Below, in pieces: positions 51,775 to 64,000 of a DNA stretch of 64,000 nt. The stretch covers positions 6,373 through 70,372 of the forward strand of contig DATAES010000151.1 in NCBI GenBank assembly GCA_036257895.1. Direction: 5' to 3'. Source of the DNA: Acidimicrobiales bacterium (GTDB lineage: Bacteria > Actinomycetota > Acidimicrobiia > Acidimicrobiales > JACDCH01). The notes under the pieces are model-generated. The model searched no databases, was not told the origin of the DNA, and saw nothing but the letters and a program-made list of their open reading frames with translations. The translations under genes and the position numbers were made by a program. The stretch's first letter is position 1; each line of letters starts with the position of its first letter.

Positions 51775-54700
51775 ATGGCTGACGAACGCTCCTCGCGAGC
51801 ACTCGGCCCGAACGAGTGGCTCGTCGACGAGATGTACGAGCAATACCGCGCTGATCCGTCTTCGGTGAGCAAGAGCTGGCAGGAGTTCTTCGCCGACTAC
51901 CGCCGTGACGACCAGCCCGCACCGACACCCGCACGCGTACCGACACCCGCTCCCGTACCGACACCCGCTCCCGCCCCGACAGCCGCTCCCGCGCCCGCAC
52001 CCGCTCCCGCACCCGCGCCCACCGCCAAGCCTGCGACGCCCGGGCGTCCGACGACCGCAGCGGTAGTGGAACGCCCGGGCGTCGCAACGGCGAAGGACGA
52101 GGAGGCGGACGTGCAGCCGTTGCGAGGTGCCGCGGCTCGCATCGTGGCCAACATGGAGGCGAGCCTCGCCATCCCGACCGCGACGAGCTTCCGCGAGGTC
52201 CCGGCCCGCCTGCTCGAGGTGAACCGTTCGGTCATCAACGGTTACCTGAGCCGCACCCGCGGTGGCAAGGTCAGCTTCACCCATCTCATCGGCTACGCAG
52301 TCGTGCGCGCGATCGCCGAGACGGTTCGCGTCATGAACTCGAGCTACGCCGAAAGTGACGACGGCAAGCCGGAGGTCGTCCGCCATCGACAGCTCGGTCT
52401 CGGCCTCGCGGTCGACGTCGAGAAGAGCGACGGCTCGCGCACGCTGTTCGTTCCGGTGATCAAGAACGCCGACACACTCGACTTCCGCGGGTTCTGGAAC
52501 GCGTACGAGGACCTGATCCGCAAGGTGCGTTCGAACAAGCTCAGCCCGGACGACTTCGCCGGCGCCACGGTGAGCCTCACCAACCCCGGCACCATCGGAA
52601 CGGTGCAGTCCGTACCCCGGCTCATGCCGGGGCAGGGCGTCATCGTCGGCGTCGGGGCGCTCGACTATCCCGCCGCGTACCAGGGTGCCGACCCTCGGGC
52701 GCTAGCCGAGCTCGGCGTCTCGAAGGTGATGGTCATCACCTCGACGTACGACCACCGTGTCATCCAGGGCGCGGAGTCGGGACTGTTCCTAAAGCGCGTG
52801 CACGAGCTGCTGCTCGGGGCCGACGGCTTCTACGACAAGGTGTTCCGCTCGCTCTCGGTGCCCTACGAAGCAGTGCAGTGGCGGCGGGACGTGAACCCCG
52901 TCGACCGCGAACAAGCCATGCTCGAGAAGCAGATGGCGGTGGACACGCTCATCCGGGTGTACCGGGTGCGGGGCCACCTCATCGCCGACCTTGATCCGCT
53001 GGCTGCCTCCGAGCCGCACATGGAGAACGAGCTCGACCCCGCCACTTACGGGCTGACCATCTGGGATCTCGAGCGCGAGTTCCTCACCAACGGGCTGGCT
53101 GGCACCGACTGCATGAAGCTCGGCGACATCCTGCACCTGCTGCGCGATGCGTACTGCCGCACGATCGGCATCGAGTACATGCACATCCAGGAACTGTCCG
53201 AACAGCACTGGATCCAAGAGCAGGTGGAGGGCGTGCGCGCCGAGCTCGATGCCGACGACCAGCGTCACCTGCTCGACCGGCTCAACGCGGCCGAAGCCTT
53301 CGAGATGTTCCTCGGCACCAAGTACATCGGACAGAAGCGGTTCGGCATGCAAGGCGCCGAGTCGGCGATCCCGATCCTCGACGCGGTGATCGAGGAGGCG
53401 GCCGAGCGCGACCTCGACGGCGTTGTGATGGGCATGTCGCACCGAGGCCGGCTCAACGTGCTCGCCAACATCGTCGGCAAGAGCTACGACCAGATCTTCA
53501 AGGAATTCGAAGGTGCCGTCGATCCCGAGTCGACGCAAGGCTCCGGCGACGTGAAGTACCACCTCGGCCAATCCGGCAAGTTCGTTTCGCGCAGTGGCAA
53601 AGAGATCGAAGTCGAGTTGTCGGCCAACCCGAGCCATCTCGAGGCGGTGGACCCCGTCGTCGTGGGTATGGCGCGGGCGAAGCAGGATCTGATCAACGAT
53701 CCGGGCTCGTTCTCCGTCGTGCCGATCCTCGTGCACGGCGACGCCGCGTTCGCAGGGCAAGGCGTCGTCGCGGAGACGCTGCAGCTCGGGATGATCAAGG
53801 GTTACCGCGTCGGCGGCACGATCCATCTCGTCATCAACAACCAACTCGGCTTCACGACCCCGCCCGAGTCGGCGCGGTCGTCCGAGTACCCGACGGACAT
53901 CGCCAAGATGGTGCAGGCGCCGATCTTTCACGTGAACGGTGACGACCCGGAGGCGTGCGTGCGGGTCGCAAGGCTCGCGTTCGCGTACCGGCAGCGGTTC
54001 GGCAAGGACGTCGTCATCGACATGATCTGCTACCGCCGGCTCGGTCACAACGAAGGTGACGACCCGAGCTACACGCAGCCGCTGATGTACAAGCGCATCG
54101 AGAACAAGCGGTCGGTCCGCAAGCTCTACACCGAGTCGCTCGTCAAGCGAGGCGATATCACCCTGGACGAAGCCGAACACGCGCTCGACGACTTCCAGGC
54201 GAAGCTGCAAGAGGCGCTCAACTCGACACGATCGCATGCTCCTGCGCCCGGCACGAGGGCGCAGCCCCCGCCCCCGCCCGCTGGTTGCCTGCCCCGGGTC
54301 GAGACCGGCGTCGACCGAGCGACCATCGATCGGATCTATGACGTCTTGTCGACGCCCCCCGAGGGCTTCGAACTGCACCCGAAGCTCGGTCGCCAGTTCG
54401 ACGCGCGCACGAAGATGTTCAAGCAGGAGGGCGAGGTCGACTGGGCGCTGGCCGAGGCGATCGCCTTCGGTTCACTGTTGCTCGAGGGCACCGACATCCG
54501 CGTGGCGGGGCAGGACACGAGGCGGGGCACGTTCAGCCAGCGCCACTCCGTGCTCGTGGACTACTCCACCGGCGCGGAGTGGGCGCCGCTGGCCCACCTC
54601 GACCCGGACCAGGCGAAGTTCTGGATCTACGACTCGCTTCTGTCGGAGTACGCGGCGGTCGGCTTCGAGTACGGCTACTCGGTCGTCAACAAGAGCGCCC

Positions 54701-55470
54701 TCGTCGCGTGGGAGGCGCAGTTCGGCGATTTCGTGAACGGGGCCCAGATCGTCATCGATCAGTACCTCGTCGCTGCCGAGGACAAGTGGGGCCAGACGTC
54801 CGGCCTCGTGATGCTACTGCCGCACGGGTACGAAGGGCAGGGGCCTGAGCACAGCTCGGCTCGTATCGAGCGCTTCCTCACACTGTGCGCGGAGGACAAC
54901 ATCCAGATCACGAACTGCACGACTGCAGCGCAGTACTTCCATCTGTTGCGCCGGCAGATGCGTCGCGAAGTGCGCAAGCCGCTGATCGAGTTCACGCCGA
55001 AGTCGTTGTTGCGGGCGAAGCCGGCGCGCTCGAAGGTCGCGGAGCTCACGCAGGGTTCGTTCTACGAAGTGCTCGACGACCCGACGTTCACGGGCGACGC
55101 GGCATCGGTCAGACGGGTCGTGCTGGCGTCCGGCAAGATCGCACTCGACGCGATCGCGAAGCGCGACGAGGCCGGTACCGCCGTCGCGGTGCTCCGCGTC
55201 GAGCAGCTGTACCCGTGGCCGCATGATCACCTTGCGGCCGCGCTGTCCGCATTCACGGGGGCGCGTGAGCTCGTGTGGCTGCAAGAGGAGCCGGAGAACA
55301 TGGGCGCGTGGAACTTCGTCACGGGCCGGCTGTACGAAGCGCTTGGCGACGACTACACGATCCGTCGCATCAGCCGATTCGAATCAGGTAGCCCCGCCGC
55401 CGGCTCCCATGGCGTCCACGTCCAGGAACAGGAACAGATCGTCGAGGACGCGGTCGTCACCGGCGTCTGA
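51775..55470 (+). CDS. kgd: Multifunctional 2-oxoglutarate metabolism enzyme (E1 with fused E2-like acyltransferase domain)
   Basis: 1231 aa. NEWLVDEMYEQYRADPSSV, acyltransferase DHRVIQGAESGLFL, and TPP-dependent E1 core. Confidence 0.95.
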   Translation: MADERSSRALGPNEWLVDEMYEQYRADPSSVSKSWQEFFADYRRDDQPAPTPARVPTPAPVPTPAPAPTAAPAPAPAPAPAPTAKPATPGRPTTAAVVERPGVATAKDEEADVQPLRGAAARIVANMEASLAIPTATSFREVPARLLEVNRSVINGYLSRTRGGKVSFTHLIGYAVVRAIAETVRVMNSSYAESDDGKPEVVRHRQLGLGLAVDVEKSDGSRTLFVPVIKNADTLDFRGFWNAYEDLIRKVRSNKLSPDDFAGATVSLTNPGTIGTVQSVPRLMPGQGVIVGVGALDYPAAYQGADPRALAELGVSKVMVITSTYDHRVIQGAESGLFLKRVHELLLGADGFYDKVFRSLSVPYEAVQWRRDVNPVDREQAMLEKQMAVDTLIRVYRVRGHLIADLDPLAASEPHMENELDPATYGLTIWDLEREFLTNGLAGTDCMKLGDILHLLRDAYCRTIGIEYMHIQELSEQHWIQEQVEGVRAELDADDQRHLLDRLNAAEAFEMFLGTKYIGQKRFGMQGAESAIPILDAVIEEAAERDLDGVVMGMSHRGRLNVLANIVGKSYDQIFKEFEGAVDPESTQGSGDVKYHLGQSGKFVSRSGKEIEVELSANPSHLEAVDPVVVGMARAKQDLINDPGSFSVVPILVHGDAAFAGQGVVAETLQLGMIKGYRVGGTIHLVINNQLGFTTPPESARSSEYPTDIAKMVQAPIFHVNGDDPEACVRVARLAFAYRQRFGKDVVIDMICYRRLGHNEGDDPSYTQPLMYKRIENKRSVRKLYTESLVKRGDITLDEAEHALDDFQAKLQEALNSTRSHAPAPGTRAQPPPPPAGCLPRVETGVDRATIDRIYDVLSTPPEGFELHPKLGRQFDARTKMFKQEGEVDWALAEAIAFGSLLLEGTDIRVAGQDTRRGTFSQRHSVLVDYSTGAEWAPLAHLDPDQAKFWIYDSLLSEYAAVGFEYGYSVVNKSALVAWEAQFGDFVNGAQIVIDQYLVAAEDKWGQTSGLVMLLPHGYEGQGPEHSSARIERFLTLCAEDNIQITNCTTAAQYFHLLRRQMRREVRKPLIEFTPKSLLRAKPARSKVAELTQGSFYEVLDDPTFTGDAASVRRVVLASGKIALDAIAKRDEAGTAVAVLRVEQLYPWPHDHLAAALSAFTGARELVWLQEEPENMGAWNFVTGRLYEALGDDYTIRRISRFESGSPAAGSHGVHVQEQEQIVEDAVVTGV
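52036..52082. repeat. Twin-palindrome element (family D copy 2), in-frame inside the kgd linker
   Basis: ACGCCCGGGCGT at 52036 and 52071 with the same 35-bp spacing as 24144/24179. The spacer shares CGGTAGT. Encodes ..TPGRPTTAAVVERPGV... Confidence 0.85.
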
Positions 55471-55488
55471 CCGTCCGCCCGGCTTTCC

Positions 55489-55537
55489 AAATTGCGGACG
55501 TGGTGGCCGTATAGGGGCCAGAACGCACGCCGAAACG
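55489..55537 (+). repeat. REP-like element, subfamily B copy 3
   Basis: aaattgcggacgtggtggccgtataggggccagaacgcacgccgaaacg, between convergent kgd and P450. Confidence 0.8.
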
Positions 55538-55549
55538 AGTCGGGGAAGG

Positions 55550-56734
55550 TCAGGCGACCTCGACCGGGATGGACGTGGGGGAGCGGCCGAGAACGGTGCG
55601 CCACTCCACGGACCACGGATCGTCGGCGTGCTCGAGCGCTGGACCGCTGGCGAATCCCCGGACGGCTTCTTCGACGGTCATGCGAGCGAGCGCGGCGCCG
55701 AGGCAATAGTGCGGCCCGGCGCCGAAGCTCAGCAGCTTCGGCGCATCGGGCTCGGTGAATCGCGCGACGTCGAACGTGTCCGGGTCGCGCCACACATCTT
55801 CCTGACGGTTGGCGGCCGCGGTCGACAACACGACCATGGCGCCTGCGGGCAACGCCGTGCCCGCGACGTCGGTGGGCTCGACAACGGTGCGTGGGATCCC
55901 CCAGATGCTCGGTTCGTAGCGGATCGACTCCGCCGCGGCACTCGCTGCGAGCTCGGGCTCTTCGCGCACTCGCGCCGTCTGCTCTGGATGGCGCAGCAGC
56001 GTGAGCAGCGTGCAACCGAGCTGGCTGGCCGTGGTGTCGTGCCCACCGACGATCAGGTTGGCCACCATCGCAACGAGCTCGTCGTGCGAGAGCTTCTCGC
56101 CGTCCTGCTCGGCCGCCAGCAGCGCAGTGACGAGATCCTCGCCCGGGTCGTCGCGCCGGACGTCGGCCAGAGCGCGCACGTAGTCGAGCATCGCCACGAT
56201 TGCTTCGGTCGCCTCGGCGATCTGCTCGTCGTCCATGAACACGAAGGTCGCGCTGAGCGCGTCGGCCCAGTCGGCGAAGACCGGCACGTCGTGTTCGGGA
56301 ACCCCGAGCAACCGGCACATGACCCGCATCGGGATTCGGCCGAAGAGCGTCACGAGGTCGCCGCCGCCGTCCACGTCGATCGTCGCCATCGCTTCGGCGA
56401 CGAGCATCGCCGCGTTCGTCCGCAGTGCCTCGACGGAGCGAGGTGTGAACGCGCGCGACACGAGTGCCCGAAGGCGGTTGTGTGTAGCGCCTTCGTTGGT
56501 GAACATCAAGCCGCCGTACCAGTCGCGCAACGGTCCGTCGGTGATTCCCATGAGGTCGAAGAACGTGAGGCCAACGCCCGCAAGCCGGCGGTCGCGGGTG
56601 AGCCGATCGATGTCCTCGTATCGGAAGACGATCGTCGCTCCGGTCGCGTCGTCGACCCCGGTCGGCCCTTCGGCTGCGTACTGCCGCAGCGCCGCATGCA
56701 TGTCGTCGCCGAACACCGTCGCCATGTCGAGCAT
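55550..56734 (-). CDS. Cytochrome P450
   Basis: Heme loop FGAGPHYCLG, ExxR (ESIRYEP), and I-helix GGHDTTAS. ATG 56734 lies 9 nt after AAGGGG; the ORF-track start 56752 is a TTG. Confidence 0.9.
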   Translation of the reverse strand: MLDMATVFGDDMHAALRQYAAEGPTGVDDATGATIVFRYEDIDRLTRDRRLAGVGLTFFDLMGITDGPLRDWYGGLMFTNEGATHNRLRALVSRAFTPRSVEALRTNAAMLVAEAMATIDVDGGGDLVTLFGRIPMRVMCRLLGVPEHDVPVFADWADALSATFVFMDDEQIAEATEAIVAMLDYVRALADVRRDDPGEDLVTALLAAEQDGEKLSHDELVAMVANLIVGGHDTTASQLGCTLLTLLRHPEQTARVREEPELAASAAAESIRYEPSIWGIPRTVVEPTDVAGTALPAGAMVVLSTAAANRQEDVWRDPDTFDVARFTEPDAPKLLSFGAGPHYCLGAALARMTVEEAVRGFASGPALEHADDPWSVEWRTVLGRSPTSIPVEVA

Positions 56735-56748
56735 GGTCACCCGCCCCT

Positions 56749-57531
56749 TCAAATGAGTGTCAGACCTCCATCGACCGCCAGAGTCTGGCCGGTGACGTAG
56801 CTCGCGTCATCCGACAAGAGGAACACCGTGGCCGCGGCGACCTCCCAAGCCGTGCCCTGACGGCCGAGCGGGACGGGCGTCCGCTCGCGGGAGGGACGCC
56901 CCGCCGAAGCCAGCCGTCCGAGCGGTGTGTCGATCAGTCCGGGTGCGACGACGTTGGCCCGGACACCGCGGCGCGCACCCTCGAGCGCGACGTGGCGGCA
57001 CAGGCCGATGATCCCTGCCTTCGACGCGTCGTAGGCGGGAAGGCGACTGCCCGGCATGAGGCCCGCGACCGAACTGATGAACACGATGCTGCTGCCCTCG
57101 TCGAGTCGTGGCATCGCGGCGCGCGCGACGAGGAAGTGGCCGCGCAGGTTCACCGCGAACGTGGTGTCCCAGTCGGCGGCGCTCGTGCCTTGGAGTCCGC
57201 CTCCCATGCCGATGCCGACGTTGAGGACGATCCCATCGAGTCCTTCGTCGGCCACCGCCTCGACCATGGAGTCACATTCCTCGGCCGACGCGATGTCCGC
57301 CGTGATCACCGAGCAGTGTCCTCCCTCCCGTTCGATCCACGCGGCGGTGTCCTCGGCCGCGTCGCGATCGCGGTCAGCGCATGCAACGGTTGCTCCTTCG
57401 CGGGCAGCGAGGATCGAGATGGCGCGACCGTTGCCGGTCGGCGCATCTTCGTCGGCGGACGCCTGCGTGCCGGCGCCCACGACGAGGATGTGCCGCCCTT
57501 CGAGCCGTCCGTCGGCACGTGCCTCTGTCAC
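56749..57531 (-). CDS. SDR family oxidoreductase
   Basis: 260 aa with YDASK. C-terminus SYVTGQTLAVDGG. Confidence 0.9.
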   Translation of the reverse strand: MTEARADGRLEGRHILVVGAGTQASADEDAPTGNGRAISILAAREGATVACADRDRDAAEDTAAWIEREGGHCSVITADIASAEECDSMVEAVADEGLDGIVLNVGIGMGGGLQGTSAADWDTTFAVNLRGHFLVARAAMPRLDEGSSIVFISSVAGLMPGSRLPAYDASKAGIIGLCRHVALEGARRGVRANVVAPGLIDTPLGRLASAGRPSRERTPVPLGRQGTAWEVAAATVFLLSDDASYVTGQTLAVDGGLTLI

Positions 57532-57550
57532 GACCCGCCGCTCCCCTCAC

Positions 57551-58108
57551 TCACGCGTCGAAGCCCGGCACGCCCGGCTCGCGCTGGACGCCGAGGGAGT
57601 TCAACGTGAACGCGACCATGTGGTAGTGGCCGATCAGCATCGGCACCTCGATGAGCTGTCGCTCGTCGTAACGGCTGGCGAGCTCGCCCCAGGTCTCGTC
57701 GCTGATGCAGCCGGTTTCGTGCAGCTCGTCAGCAGCGCGGATGAGCGTCGCATCGAACGGATCGCTCCAACCGTCCGCACCCTTCTTGACCCGCTCGATG
57801 TCTTCGTCGGTGATGCCGGTGCCACGCCCGATCACGACGTGCTGGCCCCACTCGTACTCCGCCTGGCACAACCAACCAGTACGCAGGATGAGGAGCTCGC
57901 GCTCGCGCGCGGGCAGCTTGCCGGCGAGCAACTTGCCACCGAAGGGCAACCACCGGCGGAACAGTCCCGGATGGCGGACGAGCGTGGCGAAGATGTTGAT
58001 CGCCCAGTCGTCCGATGTCGCGACCGACTGGAGCAACTCGCGTTGCTCGTCGGTTGCGTCGTGGGCCGTCACGGGCTGGAGCCGTGGTACATCCGGTGCG
58101 CTCGCCAT
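57551..58108 (-). CDS. Carboxymuconolactone decarboxylase (AhpD-like) family protein
   Basis: ATG 58108 (MASAPDVPRLQP). RERELLILRTGWLCQAEYEWGQH. Confidence 0.8.
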   Translation of the reverse strand: MASAPDVPRLQPVTAHDATDEQRELLQSVATSDDWAINIFATLVRHPGLFRRWLPFGGKLLAGKLPARERELLILRTGWLCQAEYEWGQHVVIGRGTGITDEDIERVKKGADGWSDPFDATLIRAADELHETGCISDETWGELASRYDERQLIEVPMLIGHYHMVAFTLNSLGVQREPGVPGFDA

Positions 58109-58127
58109 TCTGTGACCGTAGTTCTCC

Positions 58128-58178
58128 GAATGTTGGTGCGCCGTGGCCCCTATGGGGGCCACGGCGACCCGGAGTTCA
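58128..58178 (+). repeat. REP-like palindromic element, family A copy 5
   Basis: Three differences from the consensus. Its last 3 nt are the stop codon of the amidohydrolase gene. Lies 19 nt upstream of the CMD start. Confidence 0.9.
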
Positions 58179-59723
58179 GTAGGGGCTCCAGTGCGTGGTG
58201 GGCGACGACAGCCATGCGAACATCTCGCGACGCGACATGGGGCCGCGGGCGCGCCACGGCGAACCGAGCGCACCTCCCTCGCGCAAGCCCGCAGCGTCGC
58301 CCTGCGACGCCGTCAGTGGATCGGACTCGAACGCGCACCGCGTCGCGGCGGGATCGATCCCGAACAAGTTCGCGGCGTTCAGCCCGAAGACCTTGCGCTT
58401 CAGCTCGTCGGTCAACGGGGGGTAGCCGTATCGCTCCTGGGCCTCCGCGCTGATCTGGAACGCACGGAACCCCGCGATCTGCGGTTGCGGCGACCCGTAC
58501 CAGACGGCGTCGGTTCCCCACAGCACGCGCTCGGTCCCGACGCGGCTCAGCAGCTTGCCGATCGCGTGCGCGGCCTCCGTGGGCCGCGTCATCAGCTGTC
58601 GCCACACCGTTCCGAGATCGGCCCAGACGTTGTCGTTGGGTGGCACCTGATGACGGTCGAGCGCCGCCAGCAACGTGTCGATGCCGAGTCGGGCCGCCGG
58701 ATTGTAGGGACCTTCGCGACGGTCGGCATCCCACGCCCCGTGGAACACGACGAACTGCATGTCGGGAAACAGGCGCGATACCGCGACGATGTCCTCCGGA
58801 CCATTGTGGGCGGCGTCGAAGTTCACCAACGGCAACCCCTTGTGGGCACAGAGCACCTTGACGCCCAGATCGTGCGCGTGCTGGACGACGGGAAGACCGA
58901 TGGCCGGATCGTCGAGGCCGAACCCATGCCCCGTCGGACTCCACGCCGTGTAGACCTTGAACGCCGCGACGTGACCGCCGGAAGCGGTTGCGGTCATGCC
59001 GTCGAGCCGAGCCGACAAGTCGCCGACGTTCGGTGCGATCACGTTGTGGACGAGCACCCGTGACGCGCCGCCCGTGGTGAGCGACGCGGCGAGTTGTTGG
59101 GTGCCGACGGCATCGGGGAACGGCACCGGTGCGTCGTCAGGTCCCGAGTTGGGTACGTCCGACAGCAGAGCAACGGTCGTGTCACTCGCGAGGAAGACAT
59201 CGTGCAGGTACGCGGCTCGGTTGACGCACTCGAGTTGGTCGTCGGACGCGCAGTCCGGAGGCAGCATCCCGAGCACGAGCTGCACGGTCTCGGGCGCGTT
59301 CTCCCGCCAAGGCGCGTCGGGCATCACGTGGTGCGTGTGGACGTCGAAGATGAACTCGCCTTGCGTGTTCAGCACCTGCTCGCACGCGGGCACGTCCTCG
59401 GGCGGAGGCGCGCTGAACGATCCCGCAGGACTGCTCGATCCGGTCGTGCTCGCGGCGTCGAATCCGCTCGCGCCAGGCTTGTGGTCCGCCGAACACGCCA
59501 TGTCGAACATGGCGAGCGATGCCGCGAGGCCGCCGGCGCCGAGGAGGAAGCGACGTCGGTCGATCCCGTTGCGGCGTGCGGCACGATCGACGATCTCGAG
59601 CGTTTCGCGCGCGATCGCACGGTCACGTGCAGTTGCCGATGCCGGAATGAACTCACCGTTCGACACCGGGCCAGGCCGTACCGGCAACACCGGTCTGCCG
59701 TCACTGTCTCGATCCACCCGCAC
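58176..59723 (-). CDS. Amidohydrolase-fold metal-dependent hydrolase with a Tat signal
   Basis: Twin-arginine motif DRRRFLLGAGGLAASLAMF and HxH motif FDVHTHH. Start uncertain: GTG 59723, 59690 or 59666. Confidence 0.8.
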   Translation of the reverse strand: MRVDRDSDGRPVLPVRPGPVSNGEFIPASATARDRAIARETLEIVDRAARRNGIDRRRFLLGAGGLAASLAMFDMACSADHKPGASGFDAASTTGSSSPAGSFSAPPPEDVPACEQVLNTQGEFIFDVHTHHVMPDAPWRENAPETVQLVLGMLPPDCASDDQLECVNRAAYLHDVFLASDTTVALLSDVPNSGPDDAPVPFPDAVGTQQLAASLTTGGASRVLVHNVIAPNVGDLSARLDGMTATASGGHVAAFKVYTAWSPTGHGFGLDDPAIGLPVVQHAHDLGVKVLCAHKGLPLVNFDAAHNGPEDIVAVSRLFPDMQFVVFHGAWDADRREGPYNPAARLGIDTLLAALDRHQVPPNDNVWADLGTVWRQLMTRPTEAAHAIGKLLSRVGTERVLWGTDAVWYGSPQPQIAGFRAFQISAEAQERYGYPPLTDELKRKVFGLNAANLFGIDPAATRCAFESDPLTASQGDAAGLREGGALGSPWRARGPMSRREMFAWLSSPTTHWSPY

Positions 59724-59772
59724 CCCCGGAGCCGAGCGAACGGCCCGAGCGTAGGTGCCCGTCGGTGCGAAA

Positions 59773-60399
59773 TCAGCGCACGCTGAAGCCCACGACTGAC
59801 TCGAGCTCAGCCAGCGCCACGTCGGGATCGACGACTTTGATCGTGGTCATGCCCATCTGTGCTGCGGGCTTGAGGTTGATGCCGAGGTCGTCGAGGAAGA
59901 CGACCTCGCTCGGTTCGACCGCGAGCTGCTCGCACGTCAGCTCGTAGATGCGGGGGTCGGGCTTGCGCAGGCCCGTCTTGCTCGACTCGACGACGACGTC
60001 GAAGAGGCCCTCCACGATCGTGAGCATCGTGTCCTCGCCCTCGGTCATCGTCGCGACGTTGTTGGTGATGAGCGCCGTCTTCAGGTGTTCGTGACACCGA
60101 GCGATCGCCTCGAGCATCTCCGGACGGATGTCGCCGGCCAGACAAGCCATGACCTCACGGGCGTCGATCTTCCAGCCGGCGGCGAGTGCCTCTGCTTCGT
60201 ACGCGTCGCAGAACTCGTCGAAGGTCACTTCGTTGCGCTCGTGTCGCGCCCACGCGTTCGAATTGTGGTTGGTGGCGTTCAGTCCCCGCAGGAAGTCCTC
60301 GGGTAGGCCTCTGTCGCGCTCGTACCGAGCGAACGACTCGAACGGGCTCGTCGAGATGACACCCCCGAAGTCGAACAGGGCGGCGCGGATCGGCGACAT
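59773..60399 (-). CDS. HAD-superfamily hydrolase
   Basis: ATG 60399 (MSPIRAALFDFGGV, DxD-type motif I). RKPDPRIY, FLDDLGINLK. Confidence 0.85.
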   Translation of the reverse strand: MSPIRAALFDFGGVISTSPFESFARYERDRGLPEDFLRGLNATNHNSNAWARHERNEVTFDEFCDAYEAEALAAGWKIDAREVMACLAGDIRPEMLEAIARCHEHLKTALITNNVATMTEGEDTMLTIVEGLFDVVVESSKTGLRKPDPRIYELTCEQLAVEPSEVVFLDDLGINLKPAAQMGMTTIKVVDPDVALAELESVVGFSVR

Positions 60400-60485
60400 T
60401 CCGGCATCGTACGGAACCGCAGCCAGTTCGAAGGTCGACCCCTCGCGGTTCGTCGACAGTTCGTCCCCGGAGCGCGTCCAGCAGC

Positions 60486-60605
60486 GAGAACCCCGACCTG
60501 GCACCGTTCCTGTCCAGCGGCAACATCTTCCTGCGGAACGCCGTCGTGTCCGCCTCCGGCTCGGTCGACGGCGAGATCGCCGAGACGTTCGCGGTGAGCT
60601 CGTAG
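60486..60605 (+). pseudogene. Possible 3' remnant of a lost gene; coding-like periodicity without a start codon
   Basis: Hand translation gives ENPDLAPFLSSGNIFLRNAVVSASGSVDGEIAETFAVSS*. 38 of 39 codons end in G/C. No in-frame ATG, GTG or TTG before 60546. The strand cannot be fixed from GC3 alone. Confidence 0.3.
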
Positions 60606-60612
60606 CTGTCGT

Positions 60613-61962
60613 CTAACCGAGGAAGTCGTGAGCCAGCGCGTTCCACAGCTCGGTGGAGAGCCGTAGCGATTCGACGTCGACCCGCTCGTCGTCGCCGTGG
60701 AACATGACGCCGTAGTCCTCGAGGCTCATCTGCGTGCTGAACAGACCGAACCCGTAAGCAGTCGAACCCGCTCGACGGAAGAACCGAGCGTCGGTGGCAC
60801 CGACCGTGAGGAACGGCACGGTTGCCGAGCCCTCGTAGAACGTCTGCGTCACCCGGCTCAGTGCATCCCACAGAGGTGTCTCGACCGGCGACGCTGTCGA
60901 CGGATCGTCGTGTGCATGCACGATGTCGACGCTTCCTCGAAGATCGCCGAGCGCTTCGTCGAGTAGCCCGTACACCTGGTCGATGGTCTGGCCCGGCAGC
61001 GTCCTGATGTCGAGCTCGAGATCGACAGTGTCTGGGATGACGTTGATCTTGGAGCCGCCGTGCACGATCGTCGGAGCGATCGTCGTGTGCGTGCACGCAT
61101 GGAACTGGCGGCCCATGCCGAGCGGCAATGACTCACACACCTCGACGAATCCTTCCTCTTGGAGGAGCGGCGCGGTCAACTCGTCGGGGTAGCCCATCGA
61201 CTCGATGAAGCGGCGCCACACGTCGTGCAGCATCGTGGGTGGCCGGAACTCGTCGAGGCGACGCACGATCTCCGCCGCTGTGACGAGCGCGTTGTCGGTG
61301 CGGAACGGCTGCGAGGCGTGGCCGGCGGTGCCCTTCACCCGCAGCCGGCACCAGGCGGTGCCCTTCTCGCCCACGATCACCGGGAGTTTCAAGCCCTGCG
61401 GGCTGGGGATCGGGATCCCCCCGGACTCTGTGATCACGTAGTCGGCGGCCACCGCGTCGTGCTCGCGGGTGACGAGATGCTCGGCCCCGTAGGTGCCGAG
61501 CGCCTCCTCGTCGGCCACAGCCAGGTACACCAGCGTGCCCTTCGGGCGGAACCCCGTCTGGGCGAGGTGCTTCGTCGCGACCGCCATAGAAGCGGTGAGG
61601 TTCAACATGTCGACGGCGCCGCGGCCCCAAACGTCGGTCGAGCCATCCTCGTTCGTCACCAGGTCACCGCTGAACGGATCGCGCTGCCATCGATCCTCGT
61701 TCGCAGGGACGACGTCGGTATGACCCATCAACAAGAGCGTCGGAGCGTTCGCGTCGGTGCCTTCGATGCGCGCGACAAGACTCGCTCGACCCTCGATCGG
61801 TTCGTACGTCTCGATGTCGAGTCCACCCGTACCGAGGTACTGCGACAGCGTGTCGACGCTGCGCGATTCCTTGCCCGAAGCTGCAGTTCCATCGTTCACG
61901 CACTCGTTGCGAATGAGTTGTTGCAAGAGGTCGGTGACCTCTGCGCTGATGTCTTCTTGCAC
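60613..61962 (-). CDS. M20-family metallopeptidase (dipeptidase/deacylase)
   Basis: LLMGHTDVV, VADEEALG and GTAGHAS. Start set at GTG 61962; codons upstream of it have low GC3. Confidence 0.85.
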   Translation of the reverse strand: MQEDISAEVTDLLQQLIRNECVNDGTAASGKESRSVDTLSQYLGTGGLDIETYEPIEGRASLVARIEGTDANAPTLLLMGHTDVVPANEDRWQRDPFSGDLVTNEDGSTDVWGRGAVDMLNLTASMAVATKHLAQTGFRPKGTLVYLAVADEEALGTYGAEHLVTREHDAVAADYVITESGGIPIPSPQGLKLPVIVGEKGTAWCRLRVKGTAGHASQPFRTDNALVTAAEIVRRLDEFRPPTMLHDVWRRFIESMGYPDELTAPLLQEEGFVEVCESLPLGMGRQFHACTHTTIAPTIVHGGSKINVIPDTVDLELDIRTLPGQTIDQVYGLLDEALGDLRGSVDIVHAHDDPSTASPVETPLWDALSRVTQTFYEGSATVPFLTVGATDARFFRRAGSTAYGFGLFSTQMSLEDYGVMFHGDDERVDVESLRLSTELWNALAHDFLG

Positions 61963-62075
61963 GTTCGCGAGCGTACGTCGCAGGCGTTGGACGTGCGCGA
62001 TCGTGAGAGAAATCACGCGTCGATGAGCAACTATCCACACGCGCGGCGCGATCCTTTGCTTGACTTACGCGTGAA

Positions 62076-63470
62076 ATGGCGTCAAACCATGTCGTTGTGG
62101 ATGGTTCGAACATCGCGACCGAAGGACGCGCCTCGCCGAGTTTGCAACAACTCGACGAAGCAGTGCGCGCGTTGCTCGCGGAGTACGGCTATGAGCATGT
62201 GACTGTTGTCGTCGATGCAACCTTCGGTCATCGCATCGATGCAAAGGAAGTGAGTGCGTACGAAGAGGCTGTGCTGAACGGCGAACTGGTGACGCCGCCG
62301 GCGGGTGCGATCGGTCGCGGCGACGCGTTCGTCTTGCAGATCGCTGACCGCGCGAATGCCAATGTGTTCTCCAACGACTCGTTCCAGGAGTTCCACGGTG
62401 ACTATCCGTGGCTCTTCGACGAGGGACGCTTGATCGGCGGCAAGCCCGTCGCCAATGTCGGCTGGGTCTTCGTGTTGCGCGCTCCCGTGCGCGGCCCCGC
62501 CAGCCGCAGATCGCTTCGTGATGCGCGCAAGTCGACGAAGGCCAAGTCGACCCCTATCACGCCGCTGAAGACGCCCACCGGTAAGGCCACCCAGGCCGCC
62601 AAGGCCAGCCACGTCGGCAAGGTCACCCCGACCACTCAGGCCGCCAAGGCCACGAAGGCCACGAAGAAGGAGACGCCTTCGCCCGCCAAAGCAGCCAAGA
62701 AGGCTTCGCTGTCCGTCGCGCCGCCGTCGGATGAGCCGATTTCGGCGGCGCCGCGCCCCCGGCGCCGACGCTCGGGAGGACGTCGCGAGCCGATCAACGA
62801 CCAGCTCGTGTACCTGACGTTCGTCGTCGATCACCCGCTCGGCACGGTTGTCGAAGGAACAGTCGATCGCTTCTCGTCGCACGGTGCGTACGTGCACACC
62901 GGCGACGCGCAGTGTTACGTCCCGTTGCGCGAGCTCGGGGATCCACCACCGCGCAGTGCGCGCGAGGTACTGAATCTTGGCGAAACGCGCCCCTTTGTCG
63001 TGCATCGCTTCGATCCCGTTCGTCGAGGGATCGATGTGCTGCCCGTGATCGGAAGCGTCGCCGTGTCCGAAAGCGGCAGTGATGTCGCCGAGGCGGTCGC
63101 TGACGCGACCGGTAGTACCAACCAAACCACACACGCCGAGGAGGCGCACGTGTCCCCTGCAGCCAAGAAGGCCGGGCCCCGGAGACGGGCCGCGGCCAAG
63201 AAGGCTCCGGCCAGGAAGAAGAAGGCGACTGCGAAGCGGGCTCCGGCTCGTAAGAAGGCAGCCGCACGAAAGACAACCGCTCGGAAGAGCACTGCTCGCA
63301 AGAGCACTGCACGCAAGCGCACGGCCAAGAAGGCGACCAGGAAGAAGGCGCCCGCACGCAAGAAGGCCGCGGCCAAGCGGACAACTGCTCGGAAGAGCAC
63401 GAAGAAGGCGACGCGCAAGAGGGCTCCGGCCCGCAAGCGCGCCGTGAAGAGGACCGCCCGCAAGCGCTGA
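62076..63470 (+). CDS. NYN (Zc3h12a-like PIN) ribonuclease domain - S1-like domain - histone-H1-like Lys/Ala/Arg tail protein
   Basis: N-terminus: VVVDGSNIA..VTVVVDAT..GRGDAFVLQIADRANANVFSNDSFQEF. Middle: GTVVEGTVDRFSSHGAYVHTGDAQCYVPLRELG. C-terminus: about 100 aa of AAKKA/ARKK/TARKS repeats. Confidence 0.8.
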   Translation: MASNHVVVDGSNIATEGRASPSLQQLDEAVRALLAEYGYEHVTVVVDATFGHRIDAKEVSAYEEAVLNGELVTPPAGAIGRGDAFVLQIADRANANVFSNDSFQEFHGDYPWLFDEGRLIGGKPVANVGWVFVLRAPVRGPASRRSLRDARKSTKAKSTPITPLKTPTGKATQAAKASHVGKVTPTTQAAKATKATKKETPSPAKAAKKASLSVAPPSDEPISAAPRPRRRRSGGRREPINDQLVYLTFVVDHPLGTVVEGTVDRFSSHGAYVHTGDAQCYVPLRELGDPPPRSAREVLNLGETRPFVVHRFDPVRRGIDVLPVIGSVAVSESGSDVAEAVADATGSTNQTTHAEEAHVSPAAKKAGPRRRAAAKKAPARKKKATAKRAPARKKAAARKTTARKSTARKSTARKRTAKKATRKKAPARKKAAAKRTTARKSTKKATRKRAPARKRAVKRTARKR

Positions 63471-63486
63471 GGCGTACGGGTGCCCG

Positions 63487-64000
63487 TCATCGACCGGGCC
63501 CGGCCGGCACATCACCGGTCCGGGCCCGGAGGCGGGTGACCACACGTTCGAAGAACTCGCGAGGCTGTACCCCTGGCACGACGAACGAGTCGCCGAACAA
63601 CCACGCCGGAGTTGCGGCGATGCCGAGTTCGCGAGCGGACTCCATCGACGAGGCCACCGACCTCGCGCCCTCGCCCCCTTCGAGGGCTGCATCGACCTCG
63701 GTGGACGGCGCTCCGCTCTGTTCGACCAGCGTCGCCAGGATCTCGGGATCGCCGATGTCGAGTCCGGTCACGAAGTGCGCGTCGAACAGCGAATCGTCGA
63801 GCGCACGAAACGCTGCCGGCCACCGGCGCCGAACCACCTCGGCGGTGTCGAGTGCGCGACGGCTGTTCGGCACGAGCGCCGGTGCTCGGAACGGGATGCC
63901 GAGCTCGCGGCACTCCCGTCCGATCGAGGCATACACGGCGCTCAGCCGTCCTCGCGGGCTGACCCATCGCCCGTCTCGGGGCAACTCCGGATGCAACTCG
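63487..64000 (-). CDS. DsbA-like thioredoxin-fold oxidoreductase, C-terminal part; 5' end beyond the window
   Basis: ORF 63487..63996, and the frame stays open to the window edge (..ELHPELPRDG..). ARELGIAATPAWLF..VVPGVQPREFF. Confidence 0.7.
   Translation of the reverse strand, partial: ELHPELPRDGRWVSPRGRLSAVYASIGRECRELGIPFRAPALVPNSRRALDTAEVVRRRWPAAFRALDDSLFDAHFVTGLDIGDPEILATLVEQSGAPSTEVDAALEGGEGARSVASSMESARELGIAATPAWLFGDSFVVPGVQPREFFERVVTRLRARTGDVPAGPGR

Follow-up and report, generated by a model that had tools for sequence, protein, structure and literature searches.

We found that one gene in a stretch of DNA of 64,000 nucleotides from an Acidimicrobiales bacterium (GenBank assembly GCA_036257895.1, contig DATAES010000151.1; the whole stretch is called the window below) encodes a protein in which a NYN nuclease domain of the RNase_Zc3h12a family is joined to an S1 domain and a polycationic tail. 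The gene is referred to here as NYN-S1. We consider it probable (about 0.6) that its product is an Mg2+/Mn2+-dependent endoribonuclease acting on single-stranded RNA (ssRNA), with a lineage-specific housekeeping role in RNA decay or processing in Acidimicrobiia.

Gene and Domain Layout

The open reading frame (ORF) runs from 62076 to 63470 on the plus strand, with an ATG start and 464 amino acids (aa) plus stop, and these boundaries are exact in the ORF listing. An earlier note, made by a model from the letters and the ORF list, had described an NYN/PIN-like RNase fused to an S1-like domain and a histone-H1-like tail. The ORF and every peptide motif quoted there are present as claimed: VVVDGSNIA at aa 6–14, VTVVVDAT at aa 42–49, GRGDAFVLQIADRANANVFSNDSFQEF at aa 80–106, and GTVVEGTVDRFSSHGAYVHTGDAQCYVPLRELG at aa 256–288. 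The layout was taken from two AlphaFold runs, one on the NYN domain alone (aa 1–155) and one on the full length, each with an alignment of 60 sequences. The same architecture was found in full-length homologs at 46–97% identity, and the N-terminus is conserved across the family as M-x3-HVVVDGSN. The parts of the gene are as follows.

62076–63470, plus strand: complete gene, with NYN nuclease, basic linker, S1, acidic patch, and polycationic tail (ORF list and homologs)
62076–62543, plus strand: NYN domain (PIN-like, RNase_Zc3h12a/PRORP group), aa 1–156 (Pfam, AlphaFold, Foldseek)
62544–62795, plus strand: basic linker, aa 157–240, rich in K, T, A, and P, net charge +15, ending in RPRRRRSGGRR, with 9/18-bp tandem repeats
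62754–62786, plus strand: Arg-rich motif R-P-RRRR-S-GG-RR, aa 227–237, directly before S1 (consensus RxRRRR)
62796–63050, plus strand: S1/OB-fold RNA-binding domain (predicted), aa 241–325, helix 243–252 and five strands (Pfam, AlphaFold, Foldseek)
63051–63155, plus strand: acidic spacer, aa 326–360, net charge −6, ending in the boundary motif AEEA-x-VSPA; predicted local distance difference test score (pLDDT) below 50
63156–63467, plus strand: polycationic tail, aa 361–464, of AKKA/PARKK/TARKS repeats (composition, AlphaFold)

More than half of the protein is charged and of low confidence, as judged by AlphaFold and composition, and these segments are probably disordered. When the full protein was run as a single sequence against those of the PDB, only spurious histone-tail matches came up, and a profile of the NYN domain alone was needed. 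An antisense ORF of 536 aa (62082–63692, minus strand) spans the whole gene, and several other long ORFs in alternative frames also overlap it. Because only the plus frame is conserved in homologs (hundreds of genomes), the antisense ORF and the other alternative frames are taken as artifacts typical of high-GC DNA.

NYN Domain

The N-terminal domain was matched by the Pfam model RNase_Zc3h12a (PF11977) over aa 4–108 with 29.7 bits against a cut-off of 23 (expectation value, E, 6.1e-7), and six divergent family members scored 28.7–41.3 bits, above the gathering threshold. With the S1 match given below, both hidden Markov models therefore lie above their curated cut-offs. The AlphaFold model of the NYN domain alone had a pLDDT of 91.5 and a predicted template modeling (TM) score of 0.87; its strands are 5–9, 41–45, 96–98, 119–125, and 129–135, with helices between them and a last helix at 141–154 (141–156 in the full-length model). 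In a Foldseek search of this model against the PDB, all 30 matches at E <0.01 were ZC3H12, MCPIP1, PRORP, KHNYN, or mitochondrial RNase P structures, including ZC3H12B (6sjd), ZC3H12C (7ndh-k), MCPIP1/Regnase-1 (3v32-34 and 5h9v), PRORP1/2 (E 4e-6 to 4e-5), KHNYN (9s2d), and human mitochondrial RNase P (7onu). The probability was 1.00 for the first 29 matches and 0.99 for 7onu, and the query-normalized TM scores were 0.54–0.66. Flap endonuclease (FEN)/T5 exonuclease structures appeared only at E >0.05 and a TM score of about 0.4. When the N-terminal 150 aa of the family in 32 species genomes were made into a profile, it also found KHNYN (4.9e-5) and ZC3H12A (7e-5) among PDB sequences. The fold is thus PIN-like α/β/α, with its nearest structural neighbors in the RNase_Zc3h12a/PRORP group, and the Zc3h12a-type NYN domain read from the letters in the earlier note was borne out.

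Since the Pfam score is above the cut-off and the predicted fold agrees, the protein is, on sequence and model, a member of RNase_Zc3h12a (PF11977). No Pfam match to NYN_YacP (PF05991) or NYN/LabA (PF01936) was found even at E ≤10, and the Pfam search of the 464-aa protein gave no PRORP, zinc-finger, or RNase_E_G match. No NCBIfam model exceeded its cut-off either, the best being hist_H1_lk_Burk (NF038053) with 28.4 bits against 80. Membership of the RNase E/G, YacP/Rae1, LabA, or H1/Hc2 families was rejected on these absent or subthreshold matches in Pfam and NCBIfam. A Regnase/ZC3H12 ortholog was ruled out by the missing CCCH finger and the missing pair of adjacent Asp residues (the DD pair, see below). 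Where ZC3H12/Regnase carries its CCCH finger, the NYN core is followed by a β-hairpin, a helix, and the low-confidence linker.

The hairpin (119–135, 'GGKPVxxVGWVF') and the helix (141–156) form a family-specific extension past the NYN core. Invariant positions between aa 112 and 144 (62409–62507) are W112, F114, R118, GGKP, GW, R135, P137-V-x-G140, and S143, and the invariant stretch W112–R144 lies outside the region alignable to ZC3H12A or KHNYN. This extension may be a family-specific RNA-binding or dimerization element.

Predicted Active Site

Invariance was judged in two alignments, one of 60 sequences (to about 51% full-length identity) and one of 32 species-level genomes. Invariant in both were D9, G10, S11, N12, D47, G82, D83, S99, N100, D101, and E105, and the mean column identity of the NYN domain across the 32 genomes was 77%. 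The predicted site comprises four elements.

62100–62111, plus strand: D9-G-S-N12, Asp downstream of strand S1 and Asn, aligned to Regnase-1 D141 and N144 (5h9v/3v32)
62214–62216, plus strand: D47, Asp just past strand S2 (β 41–45), Pro in Regnase-1 ('tvvvdatfg' against 'TVFVPSWRK')
62319–62324, plus strand: G82-D83, N-terminus of helix H4, aligned to Regnase-1 D225-D226 and KHNYN D524-D525
62370–62390, plus strand: S99-N-D101-S-F-Q-E105, Asp downstream of strand S4 and a fifth acidic residue, aligned to Regnase-1 S242, D244, and D248

Residue by residue, D9 corresponds to Regnase-1 D141, N12 to N144, G82 to D225, D83 to D226, D101 to D244, and E105 to D248, while D47 falls on the Pro of 'TVFVPSW'; 'lsndsfqef' of NYN-S1 aligns with 'VSNDTYRDL' of Regnase-1. 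According to Matelska et al. (2017), three acidic residues are near-universal in PIN-like proteins (one after S1, one at the N-terminus of H4, and one after S4), a fourth is mostly located downstream of S2, and activity requires at least four. As read from the secondary structure of the model, D9, D83, and D101 occupy the three near-universal positions and D47 the fourth. The acidic PIN site sought in a structural model was therefore recovered, in a confident PIN-like/NYN fold with acidic residues invariant in 60 members.

The site is not identical to that of the eukaryotic proteins. Acidic residues there are D141/D225/D226/D244/D248 in ZC3H12A and D443/D524/D525/D543 (the tetra-Asp motif) in KHNYN (PMC12709174), and PRORP1 has the pair D474/D475 (Matelska et al. 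2017). The tetra-Asp motif with a DD pair at H4 was not found in NYN-S1, the first Asp being an invariant Gly (G82). Apparently, D47 offsets this loss as the fourth catalytic carboxylate in the model. Because the DD pair reads GD, with a putatively compensating Asp past strand 2, the active site is not strictly of the Zc3h12a type; of the pattern first described, the conserved acidic positions stood and the exact type did not. Judged by sequence and model, the predicted site looks complete but differs from the eukaryotic tetra-Asp arrangement.

S1 Domain and Charged Segments

The S1/OB-like segment proposed for the middle of the protein proved to be an S1 domain. Pfam S1 (PF00575) matched aa 253–320 with 31.8 bits against a cut-off of 22 (E 1.9e-7), and the full-length model showed one helix and a five-stranded barrel at a pLDDT of 94–97. 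With Foldseek, this segment superposed on the S1 domains of Mycobacterium tuberculosis RpsA (4nni/4nng) with a root mean square deviation of 1.4 Å (range for RpsA/bS1, 1.4–1.9 Å), and further matches were other bS1 domains, eIF2alpha, GSP13, PNPase, and the S1 domains of RNase II/R. The family profile matched bS1 at E 4e-14. In the alignment with bS1, 'SHGAYV' (H269 and Y272 invariant) stands opposite 'DYGAFV', and the near-invariant P283 stands opposite the 'H' of 'LLHIS'. To judge from its sequence, the domain would bind RNA. In the Arg-rich motif directly before it, the nearly invariant residue is R229 in one alignment or R231 in another.

The Lys/Thr/Ala-rich linker seen earlier between the two domains was also found, as the K/T/A/P-rich segment of net charge +15. 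Its 10-residue pLDDT block means are 42–62, with three stretches below 50, and across the family it measures 50–158 aa with a median net charge of +11. TRF detected 9/18-bp repeats at 62583–62666 in the linker and 15-bp 'TARKS' repeats at 63254–63322 in the tail. The closest database relative (P0001, 97% identity) has a linker longer by one 15-aa unit, TQAAKASHVGKVAPT (alignment columns about 179–193). This difference and the tandem repeats indicate that the low-confidence segments evolve by gain and loss of repeats; repeat-number polymorphism has been reported for algP, and the NYN-S1 linker shows like variation.

Behind S1, the acidic spacer leads to a family-wide boundary motif, AEEA-(P/H)-VSPA-x-KKA, between the acidic patch and the tail (63051–63170, aa 326–365). 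E356 is nearly invariant, and divergent members likewise carry an acidic patch ahead of the tail. The patch and the boundary motif could serve as a short linear motif for interaction or as a charge-block element.

The tail (104 aa) contains 28 K, 22 R, and 30% Ala, has no D or E, and carries a net charge of +50; its 10-residue pLDDT block means are 44–53, with much of it below 50. At least 60 aa follow S1 in 172 of the 178 homologs with both motifs (median post-S1 length, 146 aa), and among the 196 homologs whose tail measures at least 30 aa the median net charge of the tail is +38. The members of 660–770 aa have no extra Pfam domain, only longer basic A/P/K/T/S low-complexity tails; in P0146 (666 aa), P0189 (770 aa), P0170, P0210, and P0160 the post-S1 regions are about 370–430 aa without a Pfam domain. 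The tail of P0146 is Arg/Pro-rich and not Lys/Ala-rich, which may be a frame artifact of a GC-rich repeat, and P0189 has acidic 'RADFD' repeats ahead of the basic part.

The tail had been likened to the C-termini of HupB/Hlp and histone H1. The AAKKA/PARKK/TARKS repeats and the high charge stood, but homology did not. HC2 (PF07382) matched aa 361–463 with 28.4 bits, under the cut-off of 40, and the histone-H1-like NCBIfam models were also under their cut-offs (NF038053, 28.4 vs. 80; NF038052, 11.5 vs. 135). Equally, the tail columns of the family profile matched Streptomyces HrdB/SigA in their lysine-rich N-terminal regions and mycobacterial uL22 in its basic extension. Therefore, the signal reflects shared actinobacterial composition and not H1 homology; membership of the histone H1/Hc2 family was rejected, and the likeness of the tail to H1/HU is, at the level of sequence, compositional only. 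Lysine repeats occur in 554 proteins of 22 Streptomyces proteomes and are common on nucleic-acid-binding proteins of GC-rich Actinobacteria (PMC5714199). The NYN-S1 tail is thus less exotic than first implied.

Distribution of the Architecture

A word-indexed search of 5.8 billion clusters gave 6138 matches. The best 120 of them were 262–575 aa long, mostly 400–530, and their recorded domain matches were all NYN, S1, or HC2. Those with names came from Acidimicrobiales, Acidimicrobiaceae, and Microthrixaceae metagenome-assembled genomes (MAGs), Aquihabitans sp., and Actinomarinicola tropica, and the database names were generic, such as 'S1 RNA-binding domain-containing', 'NYN domain-containing', and 'histone H1-like repetitive region-containing protein'. 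An exhaustive search with aa 1–340 against 1.84 billion 50%-identity representatives found 345 clusters at E ≤1e-30, and the 150 matches listed at this level all align from query residue 1–21, with total lengths of 180–770 aa. The architecture is kept in the 120 best matches of the first search and in all 150 listed from the second. In a scan of one genome per GTDB species, at least 563 loci were confirmed. The best 80 of these belong to Acidimicrobiia or to unclassified Actinomycetota MAGs, except for three apparently mislabeled bins, so that the phyletic check left the architecture as a conserved one, essentially of Acidimicrobiia among the best 80. The three bins are MAGs labeled 'Bifidobacterium breve' (two) and 'Acidobacteria bacterium' (one) (L031, L045, and L051); because their NYN-S1/HAD context matches that of Acidimicrobiia, mislabeling or contamination is suggested.

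Since databases annotate its domains, the architecture is already catalogued, but it is uncharacterized. In a literature search, no work on a NYN-S1 protein from bacteria came up, and Matelska et al. (2017) placed 154 bacterial RNase_Zc3h12a sequences in a separate evolutionary group with 'Unknown function in bacteria'. With the absence of any NCBIfam model above its cut-off, this means that no characterized family absorbs the protein, in agreement with the earlier note, whose author knew of no characterized bacterial example.

Proposed Function and Alternatives

We propose that the NYN domain would be the catalytic module, in which D9, D47, D83, and D101, together with N12, S99, and E105, would bind a metal/water network and hydrolyze the phosphodiester. 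By itself it would have little substrate affinity or specificity, and the accessory S1 OB-fold and the Arg-rich motif would supply RNA recognition. The linker (+15) and the tail (+50) would act as nonspecific polyanion tethers that raise the local concentration and residence time of RNA, and the tail may also bring the enzyme to places rich in RNA or polyanions (ribosomes, the nucleoid, or polyphosphate, for example). In the PIN-like/PRORP group, specificity is gained from appended RNA-binding domains (Matelska et al. 2017), and the closest characterized relative, ex-PIN of KHNYN, is an Mn2+-dependent ssRNA endonuclease without DNase activity (PMC12709174). The lysine-repeat tail of actinobacterial TopA stabilizes the complex of enzyme and nucleic acid and confers processivity (PMC5714199), and the H1-like tails of AlgP and PhaF tether polyphosphate or polyhydroxyalkanoate granules to the nucleoid. 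We infer that the protein acts as an RNase, with RNA and not DNA as its substrate, that its tail tethers, and that its role is a housekeeping one: the characterized members of this nuclease group all cut RNA, the TopA and AlgP/PhaF tails act as such tethers, and the gene has core-genome status and 77% mean column identity in its catalytic domain.

Several points weigh against this proposal. The PF11977 score of 29.7 bits is only modest. Of the positions that we take to be the RNA contacts of S1 domains, two aromatic ones are kept as H269/Y272 and the third is P283. Metabolic genes make up the conserved synteny, which is silent on RNA. Gly replaces the first Asp of the DD pair, which is kept in ZC3H12A (D225), KHNYN (D524), and PRORP1 (D474), and both D524A and D525A served as nuclease-dead controls for KHNYN (PMC12709174); the compensating role of D47 is deduced from the topology of the model. 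Moreover, the lysine-repeat tails of Streptomyces are enriched in DNA-binding and not in RNA-binding proteins (PMC5714199).

This last point bears on a nucleoid-associated nuclease of DNA or R-loops, whose H1-like tail would bind chromosomal DNA, whose S1 would bind single-stranded DNA, and whose PIN-like domain would cut flaps or hybrid RNA in repair, replication, or transcription-coupled surveillance. Such lysine repeats are found on the Streptomyces DNA-binding proteins TopA, HupS, FtsK, Ku, and HrdB (PMC5714199), the AlgP and PhaF tails bind DNA and the nucleoid, the PIN-like superfamily includes the FEN/5′-nucleases, and in some genomes the genes for PolA, UvrD/PcrA-HRDC, NucS, and Exo_endo_phos proteins are no more than a few kb away. 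However, every significant neighbor in sequence or structure is an RNA endonuclease, with FEN only at the weak level given above; the NYN model has no helical arch or H3TH element, KHNYN ex-PIN lacks DNase activity (PMC12709174), S1 is overwhelmingly an RNA-binding module, and the DNA-repair neighbors are neither adjacent nor consistently present. We regard a DNA nuclease as unlikely. A nuclease associated with ribosomes or with the maturation of rRNA or tRNA, with S1 and tail docking on (pre-)ribosomes in the manner of Rae1/YacP or Nob1/Utp24, would be a subcase of the RNase proposal and has a rather low chance of being right. The S1 domain is closest to bS1 domains, the tail profile matches the uL22 extension, PIN-like Nob1 and Utp24 mature rRNA and PRORP matures tRNA, and the 77% identity of the catalytic domain is as expected for a fixed structured substrate; yet no linkage to rRNA, tRNA, ribosomal-protein, or biogenesis genes was seen at the examined loci, NYN_YacP was not matched in Pfam, and resemblance to bS1 is a generic property of the fold.

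If the protein were instead a catalytically dead RNA-binding, chaperone, or condensate-scaffold protein, its NYN fold would bind nucleic acid only. RNase_Zc3h12a members with 0–5 active-site residues are known, some of them predicted to be inactive, and the large low-confidence, charged, probably disordered part of NYN-S1 would suit a scaffold. But the invariance of D9, N12, D47, D83, S99, N100, D101, and E105 (60 sequences, 32 species) is hard to explain without catalysis, and four acidic residues at canonical positions satisfy the minimum stated for activity (Matelska et al. 2017), which makes a dead protein quite improbable. Many bacterial PIN-like/NYN nucleases are toxins or accessories of CRISPR or other defense systems, and a PIN/NYN-type toxin or antiphage effector was considered as well. 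It was rejected as very improbable: PADLOC gave no match, no phage or plasmid homolog was found, no small partner, antitoxin, or immunity gene stands beside NYN-S1 in the four genomes with gene calls (described below), and synteny is stable and core-like, with high conservation over at least 563 species genomes. An ssRNA endoribonuclease remains the reading that we prefer.

Comparison with Known Systems

Eukaryotic PF11977 proteins (Regnase-1, ZC3H12B/C, KHNYN, and N4BP1) share with NYN-S1 the motifs DGSN, (D)D-x-F at H4, and SND-x-x-x-(D/E), and they are its best PDB folds (probability 1.00, TM about 0.6–0.65), but identity is only about 21–23%. A NYN nuclease with an RNA-binding module is a shared design, the module being a CCCH finger in Regnase-1, KH in KHNYN/N4BP1, PPR in PRORP, and RRM/LOTUS in MARF1. 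What is new here is a bacterial version with S1 plus a polycation and a variant active site. The eukaryotic PF11977 proteins carry CCCH, KH, CUE, or UBA domains, whereas NYN-S1 carries S1 and basic, probably disordered segments; KHNYN has an N-terminal arm (PMC12709174), whereas NYN-S1 has the C-terminal extension of β-hairpin and helix (aa 119–156). NYN-S1 further differs in being bacterial (Acidimicrobiia), in having Gly for the first DD Asp, and in its additional invariant Asp after strand 2. PRORP (PF16953) belongs to the same structural group, and in both a nuclease is combined with a separate RNA-recognition domain, but the PPR domain, the zinc-binding central domain, and the D474/D475 pair of PRORP are not found in NYN-S1. 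Rae1/YacP (PF05991), LabA-like NYN proteins (PF01936), and the CRISPR-associated NYN ribonuclease are also bacterial NYN proteins, of different groups, architectures, and contexts.

What is known of bacterial RNA decay comes for the most part from RNase E/G, RNase Y, and RNase J. In RNase E, an endoribonuclease is combined with S1, with RNA-binding segments rich in Arg, and with long disordered regions that are charged. NYN-S1 would be a functional analog of RNase E/G and RNase Y by likeness of design only, and its single-gene core-genome context fits housekeeping decay; RNase E/G has an unrelated catalytic fold, and NYN-S1 carries S1 C-terminal to the nuclease. The tails of actinobacterial TopA (C-terminal domain), HupB/HupS, HrdB/SigA, and uL22, and of AlgP/PhaF/Hc2, have the same K/A/P/R/T low-complexity composition. 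Lysine-repeat or H1-like tails are documented for polyanion tethering and processivity, and that of NYN-S1 sits on a predicted nuclease.

Acidimicrobiia are genetically unexplored, though they abound in soil, freshwater, marine, and wastewater communities. A class-wide, strongly conserved nuclease of the Regnase/KHNYN type that brings its own RNA-binding module would be a new player in bacterial RNA metabolism, give a tractable prokaryotic model of a nuclease family important in human immunity, and put a function on the bacterial PF11977 branch that is listed as unknown in the reference classification. NYN-S1 likewise offers a clean natural test of the way in which a nucleic-acid enzyme is modulated by polycationic disordered tails. 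The stakes are moderate, all parts being of known kinds, with domains already labeled in databases and no sign yet of an unusual mechanism. In a bolder version, which we hold to be unlikely, NYN-S1 would be a major, perhaps essential, decay-initiating endoribonuclease of Acidimicrobiia, a third solution beside RNase E/G and RNase Y, with condensates or nucleoid/ribosome tethering and with a D47/G82 site that is ancestral or parallel to the eukaryotic tetra-Asp site. If that were true, the block-charged regions (the acidic patch, then a tail of +40 to +60) would drive RNA-dependent condensates like the bacterial ribonucleoprotein bodies (BR-bodies) of RNase E, and the prokaryotic D47/G82 state would be the source of, or a parallel to, the eukaryotic tetra-Asp site.

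Genomic Neighborhood and Codon Usage

In the window, NYN-S1 and an M20 peptidase gene are divergent, and next to M20 come genes for a HAD hydrolase, an amidohydrolase, and, further away, a fused 2-oxoglutarate dehydrogenase; a convergent DsbA-like gene lies downstream of NYN-S1. Neighbors were counted at the best 80 loci, and real gene calls were available in two complete genomes and two MAG contigs (1.2 and 3.2 Mb). They were used instead of an unbiased clustering of naive flanking ORFs, which was uninformative owing to spurious high-GC frames. HAD is upstream on the opposite strand in 53 of the 80 loci and M20 in 36, and the DsbA-like gene occurs in only 9. In the four gene-called genomes, 2-oxoglutarate dehydrogenase, with or without M20 and HAD, is divergent from NYN-S1 (L084 has M20 without HAD), and the downstream genes vary. 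We conclude that NYN-S1 is a vertically inherited stand-alone gene of the core chromosome, not a toxin or defense cassette. The conserved block (51775–62040, also in L081, L083, and L084) includes a Kgd/SucA-type 2-oxoglutarate dehydrogenase of 1231 aa with E2 acyltransferase and E1 parts, and a cluster of Exo_endo_phos, 4HBT, DUF2505, and UvrD-HRDC helicase genes recurs nearby in L081, L082, and L084. Within the block, the plus-strand ORFs 55223–56800 (525 aa) and 57056–58453 (465 aa) have no Pfam match and overlap the high-GC3 minus-strand ORFs 55550–56752 and 56749–57531 (GC3 being the GC content of third codon positions); they are probably spurious frames.

61963–62075, no strand: divergent intergenic/promoter region, shared with the M20 gene, 36–113 bp depending on the M20 start, GC content 0.59

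This region showed no sigma-70 consensus and no Rfam match. The longest M20 ORF starts at GTG 62040 on the minus strand, and homology to 36 orthologs begins at about residues 19–33. The real start is probably GTG 61962 or 62016, the longest ORF being over-extended, and about 27 codons of the supposed M20 5′ end are thus probably noncoding.

An excess of A/T-ending codons had been noticed in the 5′ half of NYN-S1 and at the 5′ end of M20 (61.8–62.4 kb). GC3 is indeed 0.60 in the first 60 codons of NYN-S1 and of the longest M20 ORF, and about 0.8–0.9 further in; however, the dip covers only these 60 codons, not the 5′ half, and probably lies partly in noncoding DNA. At 76 orthologous loci there was no dip (0.834 vs. 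0.853), and several unrelated genes of the window fall to a GC3 of 0.58–0.67. Horizontal transfer or a regulatory signal behind the dip was rejected on these grounds. Because orthologs lack it, other genes of the window dip equally, and part of the region is noncoding, the dip is an ordinary local effect of 5′ ends and promoter regions.

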